Assembly: GCA_030614005.1 (NCBI GenBank)
Contig: JAUWKS010000002.1
Location: forward strand, 60,001-92,000
Direction: 5' to 3'
Length of the DNA: 32,000 nt
From: Candidatus Heimdallarchaeota archaeon
GTDB taxonomy: Archaea; Asgardarchaeota; Heimdallarchaeia; JABLTI01
Below, one piece after another: positions 2,038 through 9,174 of this stretch. Position numbers and translations under genes: made by a program. The notes beneath the pieces are model-generated. The model searched no databases, was not told where the DNA came from, and was given only the letters and a program-made list of their open reading frames with translations. Position 1 is the first letter of the stretch. Each line of letters begins with the position of its first letter.

Positions 2038-2946
2038 CTATTTCACCTGAAAATCCGTTTGTGTTTGCTTCAATTTAGAAATAACATCATCTCGAGTGTA
2101 GTGAGGTTCTGGGCCGGAAAATGAGATGGTAAACGAAGCTGCGGTAGCAGCAATCAACCCCGAATAATAACAATCATTAGTAATAATATACTCAAGTAGG
2201 TATGCAATAATAAAGGCATCACCTGCACCCGTTGCATCAACAACATCGGTCTGAATAGTAGGTATATCATATCGCTTCTTTCGATGGTAGATGATTGCTC
2301 CTTTATGGGCTCGAGTGATAACTAATGTATTCAAGTTAGTGGCGAGTGTAAGGTCAATTGCTTCCTTAAGACGGGAAGTGCCAGTAATTCCTTTAAGTTC
2401 AATATCATCTACTTTTAAAACATCCAGTTTTGGAAAATATTCTTTATAATCCAACCAAGGTTTTAACACAATAGATCCATTGCTCTTCTCTGTACTTCTA
2501 GTAAAACCTTGTCCATCCAAAGAAACGATTTTAAAAGTATCTCGAACGTCATCGATTAATTGGGGGTCAATTTCATTAAAAACAGGACCAAGATGAATGC
2601 ATGGAACGGAATAATATGTTTCAGGGATATCTTTGAACGTTATCTTCTCTGAAAACGAAAGTACTTTTTGCGTTCTTTTACCAGATGCTTTGTATTTATT
2701 TTCAAAGCGCATAGAAGTTTGACCGGAAATAGTAAAACCGTCCAAATCAGCATCTAATGAATTAATTATTTTAAGATTTTTCATATGAAAATCTGTGCCA
2801 ACTTTAGAGACAACACCAATACTTTCTCCTAAAGCTTTGGCAGTAGCAGCAGCATAGACTGGAACTCCACCAATATGTCTTTGTTCTTTACCATCTGGTG
2901 TTTTAATGAGATCCTCTGTTATACTTCCTAAAACAATGAGATTCAA
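2038..2946 (-). CDS. PfkB/ribokinase-family carbohydrate kinase
   Basis: N-terminal 'GSITEDLI...GGVPVYAA' and C-terminal PfkB signature 'VVDATGAGDAF'; TTG start. Confidence 0.9.
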   Translation of the reverse strand: MNLIVLGSITEDLIKTPDGKEQRHIGGVPVYAAATAKALGESIGVVSKVGTDFHMKNLKIINSLDADLDGFTISGQTSMRFENKYKASGKRTQKVLSFSEKITFKDIPETYYSVPCIHLGPVFNEIDPQLIDDVRDTFKIVSLDGQGFTRSTEKSNGSIVLKPWLDYKEYFPKLDVLKVDDIELKGITGTSRLKEAIDLTLATNLNTLVITRAHKGAIIYHRKKRYDIPTIQTDVVDATGAGDAFIIAYLLEYIITNDCYYSGLIAATAASFTISFSGPEPHYTRDDVISKLKQTQTDFQVK

Positions 2947-2974
2947 CTTATCACCAAATAATTTTCATTATTTT

Positions 2975-3115
2975 GCTCCTCTGCCTATGCTTCAAGTCTT
3001 CTCTTCATCGAGGTGGTTGCCCTCTCTGAGTTAACAGTATCATGGTCAGTGAAGGAATGCATCTCAGCATCCATAGCAGTGTTGAGTTCTTCTCGTCTAC
3101 TTGCCGACAGTGAGA
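2975..3115 (-). ncRNA. Candidate structured RNA overlapping the 3' end of the RAMP-HD gene
   Basis: GC 69/150 (46%) over 2971-3120 versus 31/120 (26%) over 3121-3240. Hand-found hairpins at 3091-3115, 3054-3072 and 3010-3024, plus a CUUCA/UGAAG closing stem. Confidence 0.4.
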
Positions 3116-4112
3116 TAATGCCTTTGTTGATTTTTAACTTATTGTCATAATAATCATTTATTGCCAAGTTAACCATTATTAACAGATGATTTTGTAAAGT
3201 GCTCTTTCCATAGAGCATTGATTCTACAATTCTATTTAATTCTTGTGAACAGTGGATATAGGAATATAATTTTATGTGACTGTTTTGCTGTCCTTCGATT
3301 TCTTTTTTCAGTTGTTTGAAATCAATACTTCCGTCTAATTTATTATATCGAAAAATTGTTTTGAATGGTTTCTTCCGAGTAATGTAAGAAGCAAAACCGT
3401 CATAGTATTGAATGAGTGAATGATAAGGATTCTCTCGAGATAATGAGGTGTGATGATGTAAACATGCTTCCCTTATTTCTTCATCTTCAATGTCTATCTG
3501 TTGGAAAATTTTACTATTGTGCTTTTCTGTGTGGACAAAATCATGAAGCATAAGAGCGATAAGCAACCTTTGTAATTCTTCGGGATAATCAGCTCGTATA
3601 CCAGCTCGAATTTTGAATTTCTTATAACACCATGTTTGATTGCAAGTAAAGCATCGTTTGCGTTTAGAACCTTTATCATAAATGACCGTTGTATTCTTGC
3701 ACTGAGGACATTTTTCAGATAGGGGAACAAATACAGTTGGAGTTTTGTGTGAATGCTCTTTTATTTCACACGATTCCCAAATAACTCGACCGAGTCCTTC
3801 AGCAGTTTTCGTACCCAGGAATGTTTTCTGAAGAAAATATCCTATCTTACGTTTTAGTTGTTCTTCTGAATACCCCATGCAACTGACTTTCACATATCCT
3901 CTAAAACCTTGCAAAACGGATGGATATTGACTCATGCAATAAACTAACTTCCCAATAGAAGTAAAAAGGGGTTTGGATTCTTTTTTTGGATCTCCAACCA
4001 CTTTTACTAAACAACCATGTTTCCAATAAGTTGACTTAGAAATGACGATAGGGGTTAGCAAACGACCTATAAGGACAGCAATTTTCTTTTGTTTTACTTG
4101 TAAGTTTTCCAT
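2985..4112 (-). CDS. Fusion of RAMP-like (Cas5-type) domain, Zn ribbon and Cas10-type HD nuclease domain
   Basis: N-terminal 'LLTPIVI...FRGYV...FLGTKTAEGLGRVIW' (G-rich loop); CPQC...CFTC; 'LMLHDF...CLHHH...YYDGFAS...STLQNHLL'. Start moved to ATG 4112 (GGAG upstream); the track uses GTG 4124. Confidence 0.75.
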   Translation of the reverse strand: MENLQVKQKKIAVLIGRLLTPIVISKSTYWKHGCLVKVVGDPKKESKPLFTSIGKLVYCMSQYPSVLQGFRGYVKVSCMGYSEEQLKRKIGYFLQKTFLGTKTAEGLGRVIWESCEIKEHSHKTPTVFVPLSEKCPQCKNTTVIYDKGSKRKRCFTCNQTWCYKKFKIRAGIRADYPEELQRLLIALMLHDFVHTEKHNSKIFQQIDIEDEEIREACLHHHTSLSRENPYHSLIQYYDGFASYITRKKPFKTIFRYNKLDGSIDFKQLKKEIEGQQNSHIKLYSYIHCSQELNRIVESMLYGKSTLQNHLLIMVNLAINDYYDNKLKINKGIISLSASRREELNTAMDAEMHSFTDHDTVNSERATTSMKRRLEA

Positions 4113-5029
4113 GCATCTAAACACTCCTGTAATAATTTATTTTGAGATTTAGTTCTTTCAACCTCAATGATAGATAATCTCCCATCTCCATTTTCTTGCC
4201 CCAATTTTCTCTCGAAAACTATCTTCTCATATGAAACATCTTTTATCTCAAGACGACCATATCCACTATTGCTCCCTCGACCAAGATGTTTTAATGATAG
4301 AATCCCATCTATGAGTAACCCAAGTAACCATTGCGGTAGGTTGTCTGAAAATTCCACATAGAATTGAAACTCTCCACTGAAATATTGTTCACTAAAGTCT
4401 TGCAAGACTTTTCCATCTCTTCGAGAAGCATGACGATTCTCAGTTGAAACATGAACAAATGAAAGACCTTTTTGAGTAGTGATTTTATTCAAAGGTTTGT
4501 CGGTTTGTACGAGAGCATCTGTCCAGATTCTTATGCATGACTTCTCCCCAAGCATACCAAATAATTGCCTTACTGCGCAGGGATTCTCTCCACATTTGCC
4601 CATAAGATGTTCGTTGATTAGCAAGGTTGGCTCATCATTGCTTTTGAATCTCTCTTTCATAGTAGGAGAACAATATTCTATTCCTCTGTTATGTAGAATC
4701 TCCATGATACTATGTCTAATTGCACCACGAACACCCTTAACCACTCGAGAGCTTCCAAGTTCTTCTTTAAGGGTAATGATTTGTATTTTAGAGTCGCTTT
4801 TCTTTCCTTCTACTTTAGCTCTTAACTCAGTTAAATCATCAAGAATCAAATCTTTGTTGAGTGAGAGGAATTCCTCTATTTCGGAAACCTTAACATTTGT
4901 TCTGCCTTGAAATTGATAAGGAACATTTCCACCCTTCATAAGAAAGGAACTCGAACCACTGCTACCATTAAGTGTTTTCGTGAACCAAGCATACACCTTT
5001 ACTGTTAAACGATTGAATGTTGTAGCCAT
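4094..5029 (-). CDS. Cas7/Csm3-like RAMP superfamily protein
   Basis: 'SSRVVKGVRGAIRH' (S-x-KG-x-R type motif), Cys cluster 'EYC...KCGENPCAVRQLFG', and C-terminal G-rich loop 'LGRGSNSGYGRLEI'. Start probably ATG 5029 (MATTF); ATG 5041 is the alternative. Confidence 0.85.
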   Translation of the reverse strand: MATTFNRLTVKVYAWFTKTLNGSSGSSSFLMKGGNVPYQFQGRTNVKVSEIEEFLSLNKDLILDDLTELRAKVEGKKSDSKIQIITLKEELGSSRVVKGVRGAIRHSIMEILHNRGIEYCSPTMKERFKSNDEPTLLINEHLMGKCGENPCAVRQLFGMLGEKSCIRIWTDALVQTDKPLNKITTQKGLSFVHVSTENRHASRRDGKVLQDFSEQYFSGEFQFYVEFSDNLPQWLLGLLIDGILSLKHLGRGSNSGYGRLEIKDVSYEKIVFERKLGQENGDGRLSIIEVERTKSQNKLLQECLDAWKTYK

Positions 5030-5048
5030 TTCAATTACCATATAAATA

Positions 5049-5106
5049 TATATTTAAATGTATATTTAAAGGTTTCTTTGATGAGAAAATTAATATATTT
5101 TTAAAT
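5049..5106. promoter_or_regulatory. Divergent archaeal promoters (TATA boxes) for the RAMP operon and abrB-like gene
   Basis: Minus-strand TTTAAATATA at 5070-5061 and again at 5058-5049, preceded by purine-rich AAGAAACC. Plus-strand TTTAAATA near 5099-5106 lies about 25 nt before ATG 5130. Confidence 0.55.
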
Positions 5107-5129
5107 AGACATAATCCATTGTGAGAAGA

Positions 5130-5309
5130 ATGACCGAGCAAAAAGTGCCAGTGATAAAATTTACCAGAAAAATAGGAAAGGTAGGGGACAGTATAAGAAT
5201 AACAATACCAAAAGAAATTACAGATTCATTGACTATAGAAGAAGGACAGTATTTTGAGATTTATGCAATAAATAGCGAAACTATTGTAATGAAAAAAATA
5301 AGGGAATGA
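5130..5309 (+). CDS. AbrB/MazE/SpoVT-family DNA-binding protein
   Basis: 'RKIGKVGDSIRITIPKEITDSLTIEEGQYFEI' is a classic swapped-hairpin signature. ATG 5130 preferred over GTG 5121. Confidence 0.85.
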   Translation: MTEQKVPVIKFTRKIGKVGDSIRITIPKEITDSLTIEEGQYFEIYAINSETIVMKKIRE

Positions 5310-5340
5310 ATTTTATTAGAAAATCAATAGTCACCCATGT

Positions 5341-5393
5341 GGAGCGTCGTGAATCACTGTAAGGGATGAACAGCGACGGCATGAGTCTGCTCC
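5341..5393 (+). ncRNA. GC-rich intergenic stem-loop, candidate small RNA or element end
   Basis: GC 39/70 (56%) over 5331-5400 versus 11/60 (18%) over 5401-5460. Nested pairings GGAGC/GCTCC, CGTCGT/GCGACG and CTGT/ACAG. Strand uncertain. Confidence 0.45.
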
Positions 5394-5509
5394 GAGCAAG
5401 AACATTGAGAACAAAAGTTATAACAGATTAAAAGATATTATTTCTAAAATTAGTAATTAGAATAATCCGAGCATCAAAAAATAAAACTAATAGAAATTGA
5501 GGAGATAAA

Positions 5510-7711
5510 ATGCCTGCGAGAGAAAATATTTTTGTGAAATGGTTAAAAGATAAAAGCAAAAGCAAGGGATTAGAAATACCAAAAAACACTACTGGAATTT
5601 TTACTACAAATAAAACTCATTTACCTCAAAATCTCCAAACCTTAGCGAAAACGATACTTGAATTAGGGGAAAGAGATGGCGAATTAGGAATACAAGCATT
5701 ACTACTGAGATTGAAAGGAGCAGAACGAGTAAATCAGCAAGATCTTCCATATGTTCATTCGGCTTTAGATACTGTAGTCTCCAGTTTAGGATATGAGAAT
5801 CGGAATGAGTTAATTCAATTCTTTGCAGTACCAGATGTTGATAGAAAAACCGTTTACAATCCGGATGAAGATCAAATATTTGATGAGAAAATGGGGGAGA
5901 TTTATACCGCAGTTCTTAGTACGATTCAAAAAGTTCGTCCAGGAATCCAAGTTACTCTTCCAAGGTTAGCTGAGCTTGCTAAATCACCGAAAAAATTTGT
6001 TGAAGAGGTTATCCTTGCGATTCTTGAACAAAAACCAGTACTTGGAGAATACCTACAATTTGAACAGGTATTCATTCGAGAAGAAGATACAGATGAGCTT
6101 ATTGATGAATTGATCGCTCAACCTATACCACGCTATGGGCACTTTCATTGCTCTCACTGTCAAGAAATTATAGAAAATCGGTCTGCAAATACTTGTCCAT
6201 CATGCGGTGAAAAAGTTTCCCGCTGTATAGTTTGTAAACTCCCAATCTCCGCTGATGATAGCATTGGCAAATGTTCACAATGTGAAGGGTTAGCTCATCT
6301 AACACACTTACAAGAATGGGTAAAAGTCAAAGGGAAATGCCCAAGATGTTTACAAGCTACCAAAGTAGTTATTTTGAAAGAAGCTAAACCAATACAGGAA
6401 GAAAAACTGGCATTTGGAATAGAATTGTCAGGTATACAAATTGTTAATTCCGGCGAATGGAAAGATATACCTGAAGGCTCTACTGTTGATGATGTTCAAG
6501 GGTTTTTCAATATGCTCTTTGCCACTAATGAGAAAAAATTATTCCTCTGGCGACGTAATAAACTTCATTCTATAGGTTTTTTTGAGCATGGCAAATTCTT
6601 TATTCATGAAATGAAACTTTTCGATTCGGTAAAGGAATATCTAATTGCTACAAATGTAGGATTAAAAACACCAGAAAGTCTACAAAGATATAGAGAAGCT
6701 CGTAGTTTTGGATGGGAAAATTATGAAATAGTGGATAATATTTGGGAAGCTATAAATAAAAGATATTCAAGTATTGAATATAGTTACGGGCACAGAGCCG
6801 GGGAACAGTTTAGTTTTAAATATGAAATTATGCGTCATCCTTTTATTGAAGAAAAATACCCAGAATTAGTGTATGGTTTAAAATCAAATAGTATATGTTA
6901 TGAAATTTTACCACCTTTAGATTCCGATATCATCTATGGTGAAGATTGGTTTATTTGGTTATTAGCATATGAAAGTGGTTGGGAGTCATTTAAGAAACTA
7001 AACGATTTTGCCAGAAGTGTTTTTCCAGAATTTCAAGAGCTATATAAAGAATGGATAGAAAGAGATGTCGATAGAAAAAATAAACAAACAAAGAAACGTC
7101 CATTTAGGGATTATTATAAACTTAGTCAAAAAATGGATCCAATTAGTTATACAAGAAGAAAAACACATGTAACTAAAAAACAGGAGATTTATTTCTCAGA
7201 GAGATATGAAAGATTCCTCAAATTACTATTTTTAGCAATTTACGGTCCCTTCAATGCAAACGATGATTGGTTACAAGGATGGCCAAATTTTAATTCTCTC
7301 ATGGATTTCTGGACTAAAAAGGAAGATATTCATCATTTCTGGAATCCAAATTTAAATGAATATATTACCGTTAAAAAACATCTTGAGAAAAACATCCTCC
7401 CAATGAAAATCTACCCTGCAATAGTACCATATGATTCTTCTTGTAAAAATAGTTTAGATTGGATTTTTTGGGCTTTAGCAATAACAAATGATTGGCAATC
7501 GTATAAAGATGTAATTGAGTTAGCTGCTGAAAAAGAAAGCGAAGTAAGAAATTCATTAAATAGATTTCAAGACCGAGATAGAAAGAAATGGACAGATGAT
7601 GTACTAAAATATATTATCATATATGAAATCGCTAATAGAAGACCACTTGAAGCATCGAAAATGGAAATAGTTGTTGACCTTGATTATAATAAAATCAATT
7701 TTTCAAGTTGA
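5510..7711 (+). CDS. Large protein with central Zn ribbon and RING-like finger
   Basis: 733 aa. CSHC...CPSC followed by C-x2-C-x12-C-x2-C-x4-H-x2-H-x3-W-x6-C-x2-C. Flanking regions not recognised. Confidence 0.75.
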   Translation: MPARENIFVKWLKDKSKSKGLEIPKNTTGIFTTNKTHLPQNLQTLAKTILELGERDGELGIQALLLRLKGAERVNQQDLPYVHSALDTVVSSLGYENRNELIQFFAVPDVDRKTVYNPDEDQIFDEKMGEIYTAVLSTIQKVRPGIQVTLPRLAELAKSPKKFVEEVILAILEQKPVLGEYLQFEQVFIREEDTDELIDELIAQPIPRYGHFHCSHCQEIIENRSANTCPSCGEKVSRCIVCKLPISADDSIGKCSQCEGLAHLTHLQEWVKVKGKCPRCLQATKVVILKEAKPIQEEKLAFGIELSGIQIVNSGEWKDIPEGSTVDDVQGFFNMLFATNEKKLFLWRRNKLHSIGFFEHGKFFIHEMKLFDSVKEYLIATNVGLKTPESLQRYREARSFGWENYEIVDNIWEAINKRYSSIEYSYGHRAGEQFSFKYEIMRHPFIEEKYPELVYGLKSNSICYEILPPLDSDIIYGEDWFIWLLAYESGWESFKKLNDFARSVFPEFQELYKEWIERDVDRKNKQTKKRPFRDYYKLSQKMDPISYTRRKTHVTKKQEIYFSERYERFLKLLFLAIYGPFNANDDWLQGWPNFNSLMDFWTKKEDIHHFWNPNLNEYITVKKHLEKNILPMKIYPAIVPYDSSCKNSLDWIFWALAITNDWQSYKDVIELAAEKESEVRNSLNRFQDRDRKKWTDDVLKYIIIYEIANRRPLEASKMEIVVDLDYNKINFSS

Positions 7712-7950
7712 AGATTGTTGTTTATTCCCTCTCATAAGATTTTTTTTATCATCAAGGAAATTAATCGAAGGAAAAAAGAGTCGAGAAGAAGAAAAAGAAG
7801 AAGAGAGAGTTGTTAAAAGATTAACCATTCAAAAATCATTCGAAGCGAAGAAGAAAGAAGTAAAAACATTACTGATAAAAGTAAATGAATTTATAACAGT
7901 AATTCAATTAATTGATTGTATTTATCAGAAATGAATATTTGTGAAGTAGA

Positions 7951-9174
7951 ATGTCAATTCAGAAAAAAATTGCTAAGAGAATTGGTATTACACCAGAAGG
8001 AAAACCCATTCCGCCTAAGATTGATAATGAGGAAGCAAAAAAAGCACAAAATGAGCTTAATACAATACTCAAAAGGGATGATATCAATTCGAATGCTCTT
8101 CCATCTAATGAAGGGAATATTCTAACTATTTTATTACACGGGTATATTTCATCAAAGTGGTTATGGGTTGACCCATTCTTTGGAACTTTAGGCTGGCTGA
8201 GAGATCATAAAAATGAACCAAAACCGAGAAACTATGGCTGGCATCAAACTCCACCACCACCTCATATGTTTATTCCTTTTGATATTAGTATTTCTCCAAC
8301 AATATATCCAGAAGGAGCATTTAATACTTTGATTCGTGAGGGATATGAAGTATTAACATATTCGCAACAAGATGCCACAGGGAAAATCGATATTTCAGTG
8401 AAGGAGTTAGAGAATATCATAAAAGCTATAAGGAAAGTCTTAGGCAATAGACGATTGGTACTCGTTGGACATTCGCGAGGGGGAATATGTATAAGAAGAT
8501 ATTTGGATTTACATACAAATTCAGAAGTAGAAAAAATAATTACTTTATCAACTCCTCATGGAGGATCTCAGTTCACCAGTATAAAAATGCTAAAGGAACC
8601 AGCCAAAATTTTTCTTAATAAATCCAATATTAAGGGCATTTGGGATGCTTCGGGAAATAGAGCAGTGAGAGATTTAGCGTATGAACAAATGGTACCTAAC
8701 AGTGAATTCTTACTAAATCTAAATGATAGACAAAAGTCAAAGGACATTGAATATATAACTGCGGGTGGAACTAATGCACAATATGCATATATTTACACTT
8801 GGTCTGCAACTCAAAAAGTTACTAAAAGTTTAATGACAGATATCTTTAGCTATCAAATTAGAGAGAAAATACAAAACGTCTCTAACAAAATAGGCAAACA
8901 ATGCCCAGTGAATAAGGTTGAGTCTCAAGAAAAGACATCTCCACTAAAACAATTCCAATGGATAGCTTATCCGAAAAAAATAATTACGTTATTTGAGAAA
9001 ATAAATGCCCCAGAAATTATAAACGGGGATGGAGTTGTTTCATTACAAAGTGCAATATTGAAGGATGCCACAAGAAAATATAAAATTGATGCAAATCATG
9101 AAGAAATAGCTGTAAGTGATGACACGAAGAAATTACTTTTGAAAGAGCTCAAACTAACTCAAAACAAGAAATAA
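7951..9174 (+). CDS. Alpha/beta hydrolase (PGAP1-like/lipase type)
   Basis: 'LLHG', nucleophile elbow 'VGHSRGG', 'LSTPHGGS', 'GDGVV' and late 'NH' motifs. Confidence 0.85.
   Translation: MSIQKKIAKRIGITPEGKPIPPKIDNEEAKKAQNELNTILKRDDINSNALPSNEGNILTILLHGYISSKWLWVDPFFGTLGWLRDHKNEPKPRNYGWHQTPPPPHMFIPFDISISPTIYPEGAFNTLIREGYEVLTYSQQDATGKIDISVKELENIIKAIRKVLGNRRLVLVGHSRGGICIRRYLDLHTNSEVEKIITLSTPHGGSQFTSIKMLKEPAKIFLNKSNIKGIWDASGNRAVRDLAYEQMVPNSEFLLNLNDRQKSKDIEYITAGGTNAQYAYIYTWSATQKVTKSLMTDIFSYQIREKIQNVSNKIGKQCPVNKVESQEKTSPLKQFQWIAYPKKIITLFEKINAPEIINGDGVVSLQSAILKDATRKYKIDANHEEIAVSDDTKKLLLKELKLTQNKK

Follow-up and report, generated by a model that had tools for sequence, protein, structure and literature searches.

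RAMP proteins are RNA binders, and to our knowledge no RNA is known for the ARAMP and HRAMP systems, array-less CRISPR-like systems of type III descent whose original description is said to be that of Makarova et al. 2020, CRISPR J 3:156. The ARAMP module is array-less, derived from type III CRISPR and found in Asgard archaea, and its mechanism has been called 'enigmatic' (PMC8730458; PMC12669027); a distinct Cas1 is present in most of its loci (PMC8730458). Neither PMC8730458 nor PMC12669027 mentions an associated RNA or an insertion polymorphism for the module. In this work, we describe an ARAMP module located within a 32,000-nt stretch of DNA from Candidatus Heimdallarchaeota archaeon (the window, to which the positions below refer). 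The 3′ end of one of its two genes runs into a conserved RNA-type element, and the same element marks the end of a piece of inserted DNA.

The two genes of the module lie on the minus strand. The upstream gene, P0003 (4094-5041, 315 codons), encodes a Cas7/Csm3-like RAMP protein (Pfam RAMPs, 8.5e-8; PADLOC Csm3, 1.4e-7), and the end of its ORF is overlapped by that of the downstream gene, P0001 (2985-4124, 379 codons, TAG stop at 2985-2987), which encodes a RAMP-Zn ribbon-HD protein. The zinc ribbon was the sole family match of P0001. When its AlphaFold2 model (pLDDT 78) was compared with the PDB by Foldseek, the matches were confined to RAMP subunits of CRISPR effectors (E-values from 2.6e-3, probability about 1), namely Csm3, type VII Cas7/Cas5, Cmr1 and Cas7-11, the N-terminal fold being the part that matches. 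The HD-type His/Asp residues H194, D195, H202, H224, H225, D242 and H313 are invariant in the alignment of 24 homologues. The folded part of the protein ends at about residue 340, and the last ~39 codons are those occupied by the RNA element.

This gene pair is an ARAMP module, i.e., a Cas7-like RAMP and a RAMP-HD fusion with no array. P0003 represents the Cas7-like RAMP, and P0001, with its RAMP fold (Cas5-like or Cas7-like) and its HD residues, the second RAMP joined to a nuclease. The initial annotation of this DNA had supposed that the module encodes an RNA replacing a CRISPR array, and the array is indeed missing: neither the window nor a k-mer scan of the entire 3.6-Mb genome (MAG 90% complete) yielded one, and direct repeats separated by spacers, as expected of an array and its crRNAs, are absent from both. 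The scan of the window for tRNA and tmRNA genes gave nothing. The homologue family is small (92 representative clusters), its named members being mostly Asgard MAGs assigned to Heimdall-, Borr-, Sif- and Thor-archaeota or to the 'Asgard group', and the module is array-less and Asgard-restricted apart from two MAGs labelled Bathyarchaeia and Zixibacteria. The 4.86-kb insertion described below carries no Cas1, which does not bar ARAMP membership because PMC8730458 ascribes a distinct Cas1 to 'most' loci. By tblastn, the source genome contains seven such RAMP+HD pairs.

Upstream of the RAMP gene, and divergent from it, lies a gene (5121-5309, plus strand) for a 62-aa protein with the AbrB/MazE fold (Pfam MazE_antitoxin, 1.8e-7), which is likely a regulator of the cassette. 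At other loci (L070:228-1880, minus strand, and 18 more), a protein of ~525-550 aa is encoded divergently upstream of the RAMP gene; judged by a weak LAGLIDADG_3 match (1.6e-5) and an HTH match, it is a candidate mobility or regulatory factor.

The initial annotation had placed a guide or scaffold RNA at 2975-3115, over the 3′ end of the HD gene. This segment does overlap a conserved, covarying and strand-specific RNA-type element that shares the 3′ end of the HD ORF; the true element is slightly larger, spanning ~168 nt of the minus strand (2949-3116). It comprises a core of ~139 nt (2979-3116), matched by the covariance model that we call R1, a terminal hairpin, H4, and the end motif GGUGAU(AAG), and with it the inserted cassette ends on the right. 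Copies were collected with nhmmer iterated over 80 loci (genomes and metagenomes) plus the source genome, giving 54 matches, 45 of them distinct and full-length, of which 44 were used for the structure and for the counts of stop codons. Across these 44 distinct homologous copies, the core is kept at the nucleotide level. Judged from the aligned copies, the window element belongs to a putative, hitherto undescribed family of structured non-coding RNAs confined to one lineage. Its members have two hairpin domains with covarying pairs, a conserved 3′ box rich in purines, a terminal hairpin whose sequence varies, and the GGUGAU end motif. The search of Rfam 15 gave nothing at the gathering threshold, and at E-values up to 10 only chance-level matches (E >6). 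The rise in GC content reported at this place was reproduced (0.47 at 3001-3100 vs. 0.28 at 3101-3200), with equal peaks also at 4501-4600 and 5301-5400.

R1 finds nine copies in the source genome: one behind each of the seven RAMP-HD pairs, the two most divergent included, and two orphans. Within the order, 11 of the 12 genomes contain 2-13 copies each, and there was no match outside the source genome when 150 evenly sampled genomes of the phylum were searched with stricter filters. On Borrarchaeota loci only matches with E-values of 0.08-0.3 were obtained, at the right place, so the model is lineage-specific. A related element is nevertheless present there, ~90 nt past the HD stop and thus outside the HD ORF. 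Common to both are the GCAUGAG motif and a hairpin of the GAGAGG...CCUC type; the Borrarchaeota element likewise ends with GGUGAUA and has 23 consensus pairs (97% paired, seven covarying). At one Borrarchaeum locus (L034:4815-5285, plus strand), an ORF continues across the RNA element and enters a GIY-YIG nuclease domain (Pfam, 3.3e-15).

The consensus structure was obtained with RNAalifold on the 44 sequences, complemented by pair counts. The results clearly showed that the 25 consensus pairs are formed in 94.4% of cells vs. 31-41% when the 3′ partners were slid by 1-3 columns, that double-sided (compensatory) changes in 15 pairs amount to 126 cells vs. 11-27 in the slid controls, and that the covariation score is 0.349 vs. 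at most 0.071, none of 500 shuffles reaching the observed pairing values; these controls are not formal probabilities and the structure was derived from the same alignment, yet the margin is wide. The covariation analysis proposed in the initial annotation thus yielded 15 pairs with compensatory changes across the 44 copies. There are 98 G-U cells, and pairing is better on the sense strand (94.4%) than on the antisense strand (87.4%), therefore the functional strand is that of the genes. The comparison of RNAfold energies with shuffles, which had been proposed as well, gave no thermodynamic signal: the minus strand of the window copy folds at -31.8 kcal/mol, its shuffles at -32.8 on average (z +0.26), and z is +1.70 for the plus strand. 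The missing single-sequence signal does not argue against the element, as it is covariation that carries the case.

Domain 1 is a long hairpin (3063-3114) where CUCA/UGAG and AUC/GAU close GGCA/UGCU below an apical stem. Double-sided changes occur in pairs 22-69, 23-68, 25-67, 26-66, 31-62 and 32-61. The apical stem varies in length and sequence (for instance, AGUGA/UCACU, GCGGA/UCCGC or CUACCA/UGGUAG), and its inserts of up to ~30 nt stay paired. A smaller hairpin, H2 (GGAUGC-UGAGAU-GCAUUC, 3055-3072), excludes the AUC/GAU helix (P1b). Its GGAUGC/GCAUUC stem, recognized already in the initial annotation, forms in 94.7% of cells, and one of its pairs, the outer one (GC 17, AU 13, GU 3), covaries. 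The alignment is equally compatible with H2 and with P1b, the other H2 pairs being nearly invariant. In addition, the UGAG of the H2 loop could pair with the 5′ CUCA, thereby forming a pseudoknot.

Domain 2 (2996-3035) is a hairpin with internal loops, built of GCU/GGC, CUC/GAG and GAGG/CCUC, the second pair being a compensatory U-A in the window copy. Its helix 5 is 96.6% paired, with double changes in five of six pairs, and helix 6 is 93.2% paired. The GAGG/CCUC pairing, also predicted from the window alone, turned out to be kept and covarying family-wide, its closing pair being GC in 13, CG in 12 and UA in 6 copies. Two further predictions, the UCUC..GAGA/GUC..GAC hairpin and the three-way junction made by CUUCA/UGAAG and CUGA/UCAG, proved peculiar to the window copy, and their places are taken family-wide by CUCA/UGAG, AUC/GAU, GGCA/UGCU and GCU/GGC with CUC/GAG. 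The recurrence of CACUG at 31- and 30-nt spacing is likewise true of the window copy, while the motif itself is not conserved in the family.

The purine-rich 3′ box, GAGAAG..GAAGCAUAGGCAGAG (2979-3003), consists of nearly invariant columns and holds the HD stop TAG (2985-2987). It is followed by H4 (2950-2973), a hairpin with a 7-bp stem and a GAAA loop that abuts GGUGAU. Its stem has at least 6 bp in 26 of the 44 copies, with stem sequences unrelated among copies, and GGUGAU, GGUUAC or GGAGAC follows 0-2 nt past it. The initial annotation had also advised looking for a variable segment next to a conserved scaffold; no hypervariable, single-stranded, guide-like segment was found inside the element, which is largely invariant.

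The C-terminal tail of the HD protein, taken at first for an unconserved one, is alignable among the 24 homologues down to 42% identity, the conservation being at the nucleotide level. One may ask whether the tail is instead a conserved peptide (DAEMHSF..NADSE..KKRRL), e.g., a localisation or interaction motif, with the base pairs being coincidental. It does align among the 24 homologues, and its basic KKRRL end recurs; still, we hold this reading to be highly improbable, since it is already contradicted by frames, stops, entropy, disorder and the Borrarchaeota position. Some homologues read the same tail nucleotides in another frame. Across the 44 copies, the HD frame stops from +6 to +132 nt past the invariant GAUGCUGA, the TAG within the conserved CAUAG serving as the stop in 16 copies and the others stopping earlier or later, and a long ORF is altogether missing upstream of some elements. 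On neither strand does any frame stay open throughout the family, and stops interrupt all frames in several copies. By codon position, the column entropy of the tail is 0.69/0.81/0.81 vs. 0.70/0.56/1.21 in the gene body (62 codons, same loci), i.e., the tail has no third-position excess. The confidence of the AlphaFold2 model drops exactly at residue 341, residues 341-379 having pLDDT <40 and being modelled as disordered, and the Borrarchaeota element lies outside the ORF. The lack of codon periodicity, the shifting stops and frames and the disordered tail therefore show that conservation acts on the nucleic acid, with the ORF merely running in: the HD frame has no stop before the element, and so gains a tail of ~39 residues that is disordered according to the model.

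The comparison with related genomes provided the evidence, new here, that the element is the terminus of inserted DNA. All 12 genomes of the order share the synteny of the downstream gene, PfkB, and its neighbour, and only in the source genome does the module precede PfkB. In the two closest relatives, the flanks join, which delimits the inserted DNA, missing from their orthologous PfkB sites, to window 2946-7807 (4.86 kb, minus strand); homology to the empty sites resumes at 2945. The right edge of the insertion is the element-ending GGUGAUAAG, directly before the PfkB start codon (2944-2946, 3 nt beyond GGUGAU), which reads TTG in this genome, as against ATG in the empty sites, the native leader having been replaced by the insertion. 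A second insertion, C9:96836-102202 (5.37 kb), is also fully delimited; for C67:37186 and C122:10153, whose left flanks are on other contigs, the right boundaries were tested, and one further copy is common to a relative and partly deleted there. At all four testable sites with an empty site in relatives, the right boundary falls 30-40 nt past the R1 core, i.e., just past the terminal hairpin and the GGUGAU motif.

Between the two fully delimited insertions, homology is limited to a 2.46-kb core (window 2949-5407) that begins with the tail element and closes with a second RNA-like element; the other 2.4-2.9 kb of each is unrelated cargo. The second element (5324-5410, plus strand), a conserved, GC-rich and hairpin-rich sequence, forms the other edge of the 2.46-kb core, with the AbrB-like gene on one side and P0005 on the other; three further sites in the genome (C9:99214, C9:157813 and C7:20766) carry it at 87-94% identity. 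The cargo gene P0005 (5510-7711, plus strand), inside the 4.86-kb insertion, encodes a protein of 733 aa that has double zinc ribbons and falls into no Pfam, NCBIfam or PADLOC family; the sister insertion is without P0005 and carries a gene for a HEAT-repeat protein instead. At the left ends (window ~7760-7807; C9:~102150-102202 of the source genome), both insertions have polypyrimidine (CU-rich) tracts of 30-50 nt on the module strand, in two cases only. Farther to the left, ~1.3 kb (window 7853-9150, including a 407-aa ORF at 7951-9174) is present in the source genome and in one relative (G158) and is replaced by ~88 nt in another (G152); this difference is a separate indel adjoining the insertion site.

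No target duplication was seen at the delimited insertions, and no convincing terminal inverted or direct repeats were found in the 4.86-kb insertion. Near its left end, 16 nt of the 3′ box recur in inverted orientation; this was treated as chance, as there is no counterpart in the second delimited insertion. The absence of target duplication and terminal inverted repeats, as in IS200/IS605-like elements, the right boundary coinciding with the element end at four of four sites, and the multi-copy nature of the element with its orphans would also suit a DNA-level transposon end, where a recombinase moving the cassette recognizes the hairpins as single-stranded or cruciform DNA, as at IS200/IS605 ends, and the RNA is incidental. 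We regard this as improbable: no recombinase, transposase or integrase family was recognized in the two fully delimited insertions, the 98 G-U cells would be better tolerated in RNA than in DNA, the element is situated inside a transcribed ORF, and the left ends share no structure with it.

Several modules (L074, L025, L052, L023 and L049) adjoin tRNA genes, and the tRNA starts ~10 nt past the GGUGAY end motif. The two orphan copies of the source genome (C94:2290-2428 and C9:140372-140510, both minus strand) have no RAMP-HD pair by tblastn, and the latter comes after a 546-aa ORF and a divergent c3-type gene. At L060:3868-4229 and L075:3469-3828, two tail elements of different subtypes stand in tandem, ~223 nt apart, upstream of a Snf7 (ESCRT-III) gene, as if a new module had inserted next to what is left of an older one. 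The orphan and tandem elements in general look like the remains of older modules at the same sites.

The persistence of orphan and tandem copies after decay of the RAMP and HD genes would be explained equally well by a purely cis role, which weighs against an RNA partner of the RAMP proteins. The element would then be only a cis-acting mRNA element, an intercistronic or 5′-leader structure that stabilises or processes the RAMP-HD message and that of the host gene or couples their translation; H4 and the Shine-Dalgarno motif GGUGAU would supply the expression signals removed by the insertion, and the RAMP proteins would not be partners. In accord with this, GGUGAU or GGAGAC stands 0-2 nt past H4 and is followed 3-9 nt later by ATG or TTG in many copies, at the PfkB and RpoE-like sites the inserted DNA reaches up to the start codon and takes the place of the native leader, and orphan elements have been retained in front of Snf7 and other genes at loci with a decayed HD gene. 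However, the motif and the hairpin persist before a tRNA gene or without a nearby start codon (L074, L025, L052, L023), ~60 nearly invariant and mostly unpaired positions suggest a specific binding partner, and the element is strictly linked to every RAMP-HD pair across two Asgard classes. A role in cis only is thus a possible explanation, though in our estimation a rather unlikely one.

We give a probability of about one half to the reading that the element, for which conservation, covariation, strand bias, linkage to every module, terminal position and insertion polymorphism are observed directly, is the right-end RNA of a mobile ARAMP cassette and probably the RNA partner of the RAMP proteins, a fixed scaffold replacing the crRNA. 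Most probably, it would be transcribed as the 3′ part of the RAMP-HD mRNA, fold, and be bound, and perhaps processed, by the two RAMP proteins. As a fixed RNA scaffold in the place of the crRNA, it would resemble the TnpB omegaRNA, which comes from the gene 3′ end and the transposon right end. The terminal Shine-Dalgarno-like GGUGAU may keep the downstream host gene translated after the cassette separates this gene from its promoter. A covariation-kept RNA at the end of every module and of the inserted DNA is a concrete candidate partner for ARAMP; defined ends and empty sites are now available for experiments, and the covariance model for finding more copies.

More speculatively, ARAMP may be an OMEGA-like RNA-guided system that arose from type III CRISPR and serves its own cassette: the scaffold RNA of the right end would extend by transcription into flanking host sequence, which would serve as the guide, and the Cas7-like/RAMP-HD complex could then recognise the empty site or a transcript from it and cut or mark this target. 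If so, retention or homing of the cassette beside housekeeping genes would be promoted. We find this quite improbable. A blastn-short search of the genome for complementarity to the nine copies gave only 15-18-nt matches in A-rich parts on both strands, at chance level, and between the element and its own empty sites the longest cognate matches were of 6-9 nt, the same as the non-cognate ones. An IS110/IS1111-type bridge or seek RNA was considered as well and rejected, as there are no variable loops matching the own target or donor sites above the non-cognate level (6-9 nt).

The locus can now be set against the known systems. Its presumed binders have the same RAMP folds as the Cas5 and Cas7 proteins that bind the type III crRNA with its 8-nt 5′ handle and spacer, but the ARAMP element is a single folded RNA of ~170 nt with a nearly fixed sequence, no repeats and no variable spacer. 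The ..GRAAC/GAAGC stretch of the 3′ box may loosely resemble a repeat-derived type III handle. The CRISPR-associated transposons (CAST, types I-F3 and V-K) likewise have Cas effector genes and an RNA just inside one end of a cargo-carrying mobile element beside conserved host genes; in contrast to them, the ARAMP cassette lacks Tn7 genes, an array or spacer, terminal repeats and a target duplication, and no match was found between its RNA and the attachment sites. With the ARAMP/HRAMP systems it has in common a Cas7-like RAMP, a second RAMP joined to a nuclease, the lack of an array and the restriction to Asgard archaea. It differs from its Borrarchaeota relatives, where an 862-aa protein with a Cas1 domain precedes the module, in having instead the AbrB/MazE-like gene and the second RNA-like element.

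The closest parallel is provided by the TnpB/IscB omegaRNAs of the OMEGA systems (IS200/IS605-type), which are array-less as well, and where a structured RNA also overlaps the effector ORF at its 3′ end and coincides with the right end of a multi-copy mobile element. The initial annotation had drawn this analogy from the overlap with the ORF, and it proves closer than claimed, since the ARAMP tail element is both an RNA-type element over the effector 3′ end and the right terminus of an insertion-polymorphic cassette. The OMEGA effector is a RuvC nuclease, whereas the ARAMP proteins are RAMP and HD, with no RuvC-type TnpB/IscB protein, the cassette carrying a class 1-type RAMP pair with an HD domain; no TnpA, end hairpins or target motif of the IS200/IS605 kind were recognized in it, and, unlike OMEGA elements, ARAMP insertions carry variable cargo to the left. 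The comparison also suggests that an RNA at the right end of a mobile element can link class 1 Cas proteins to that element, as it does TnpB and IscB.
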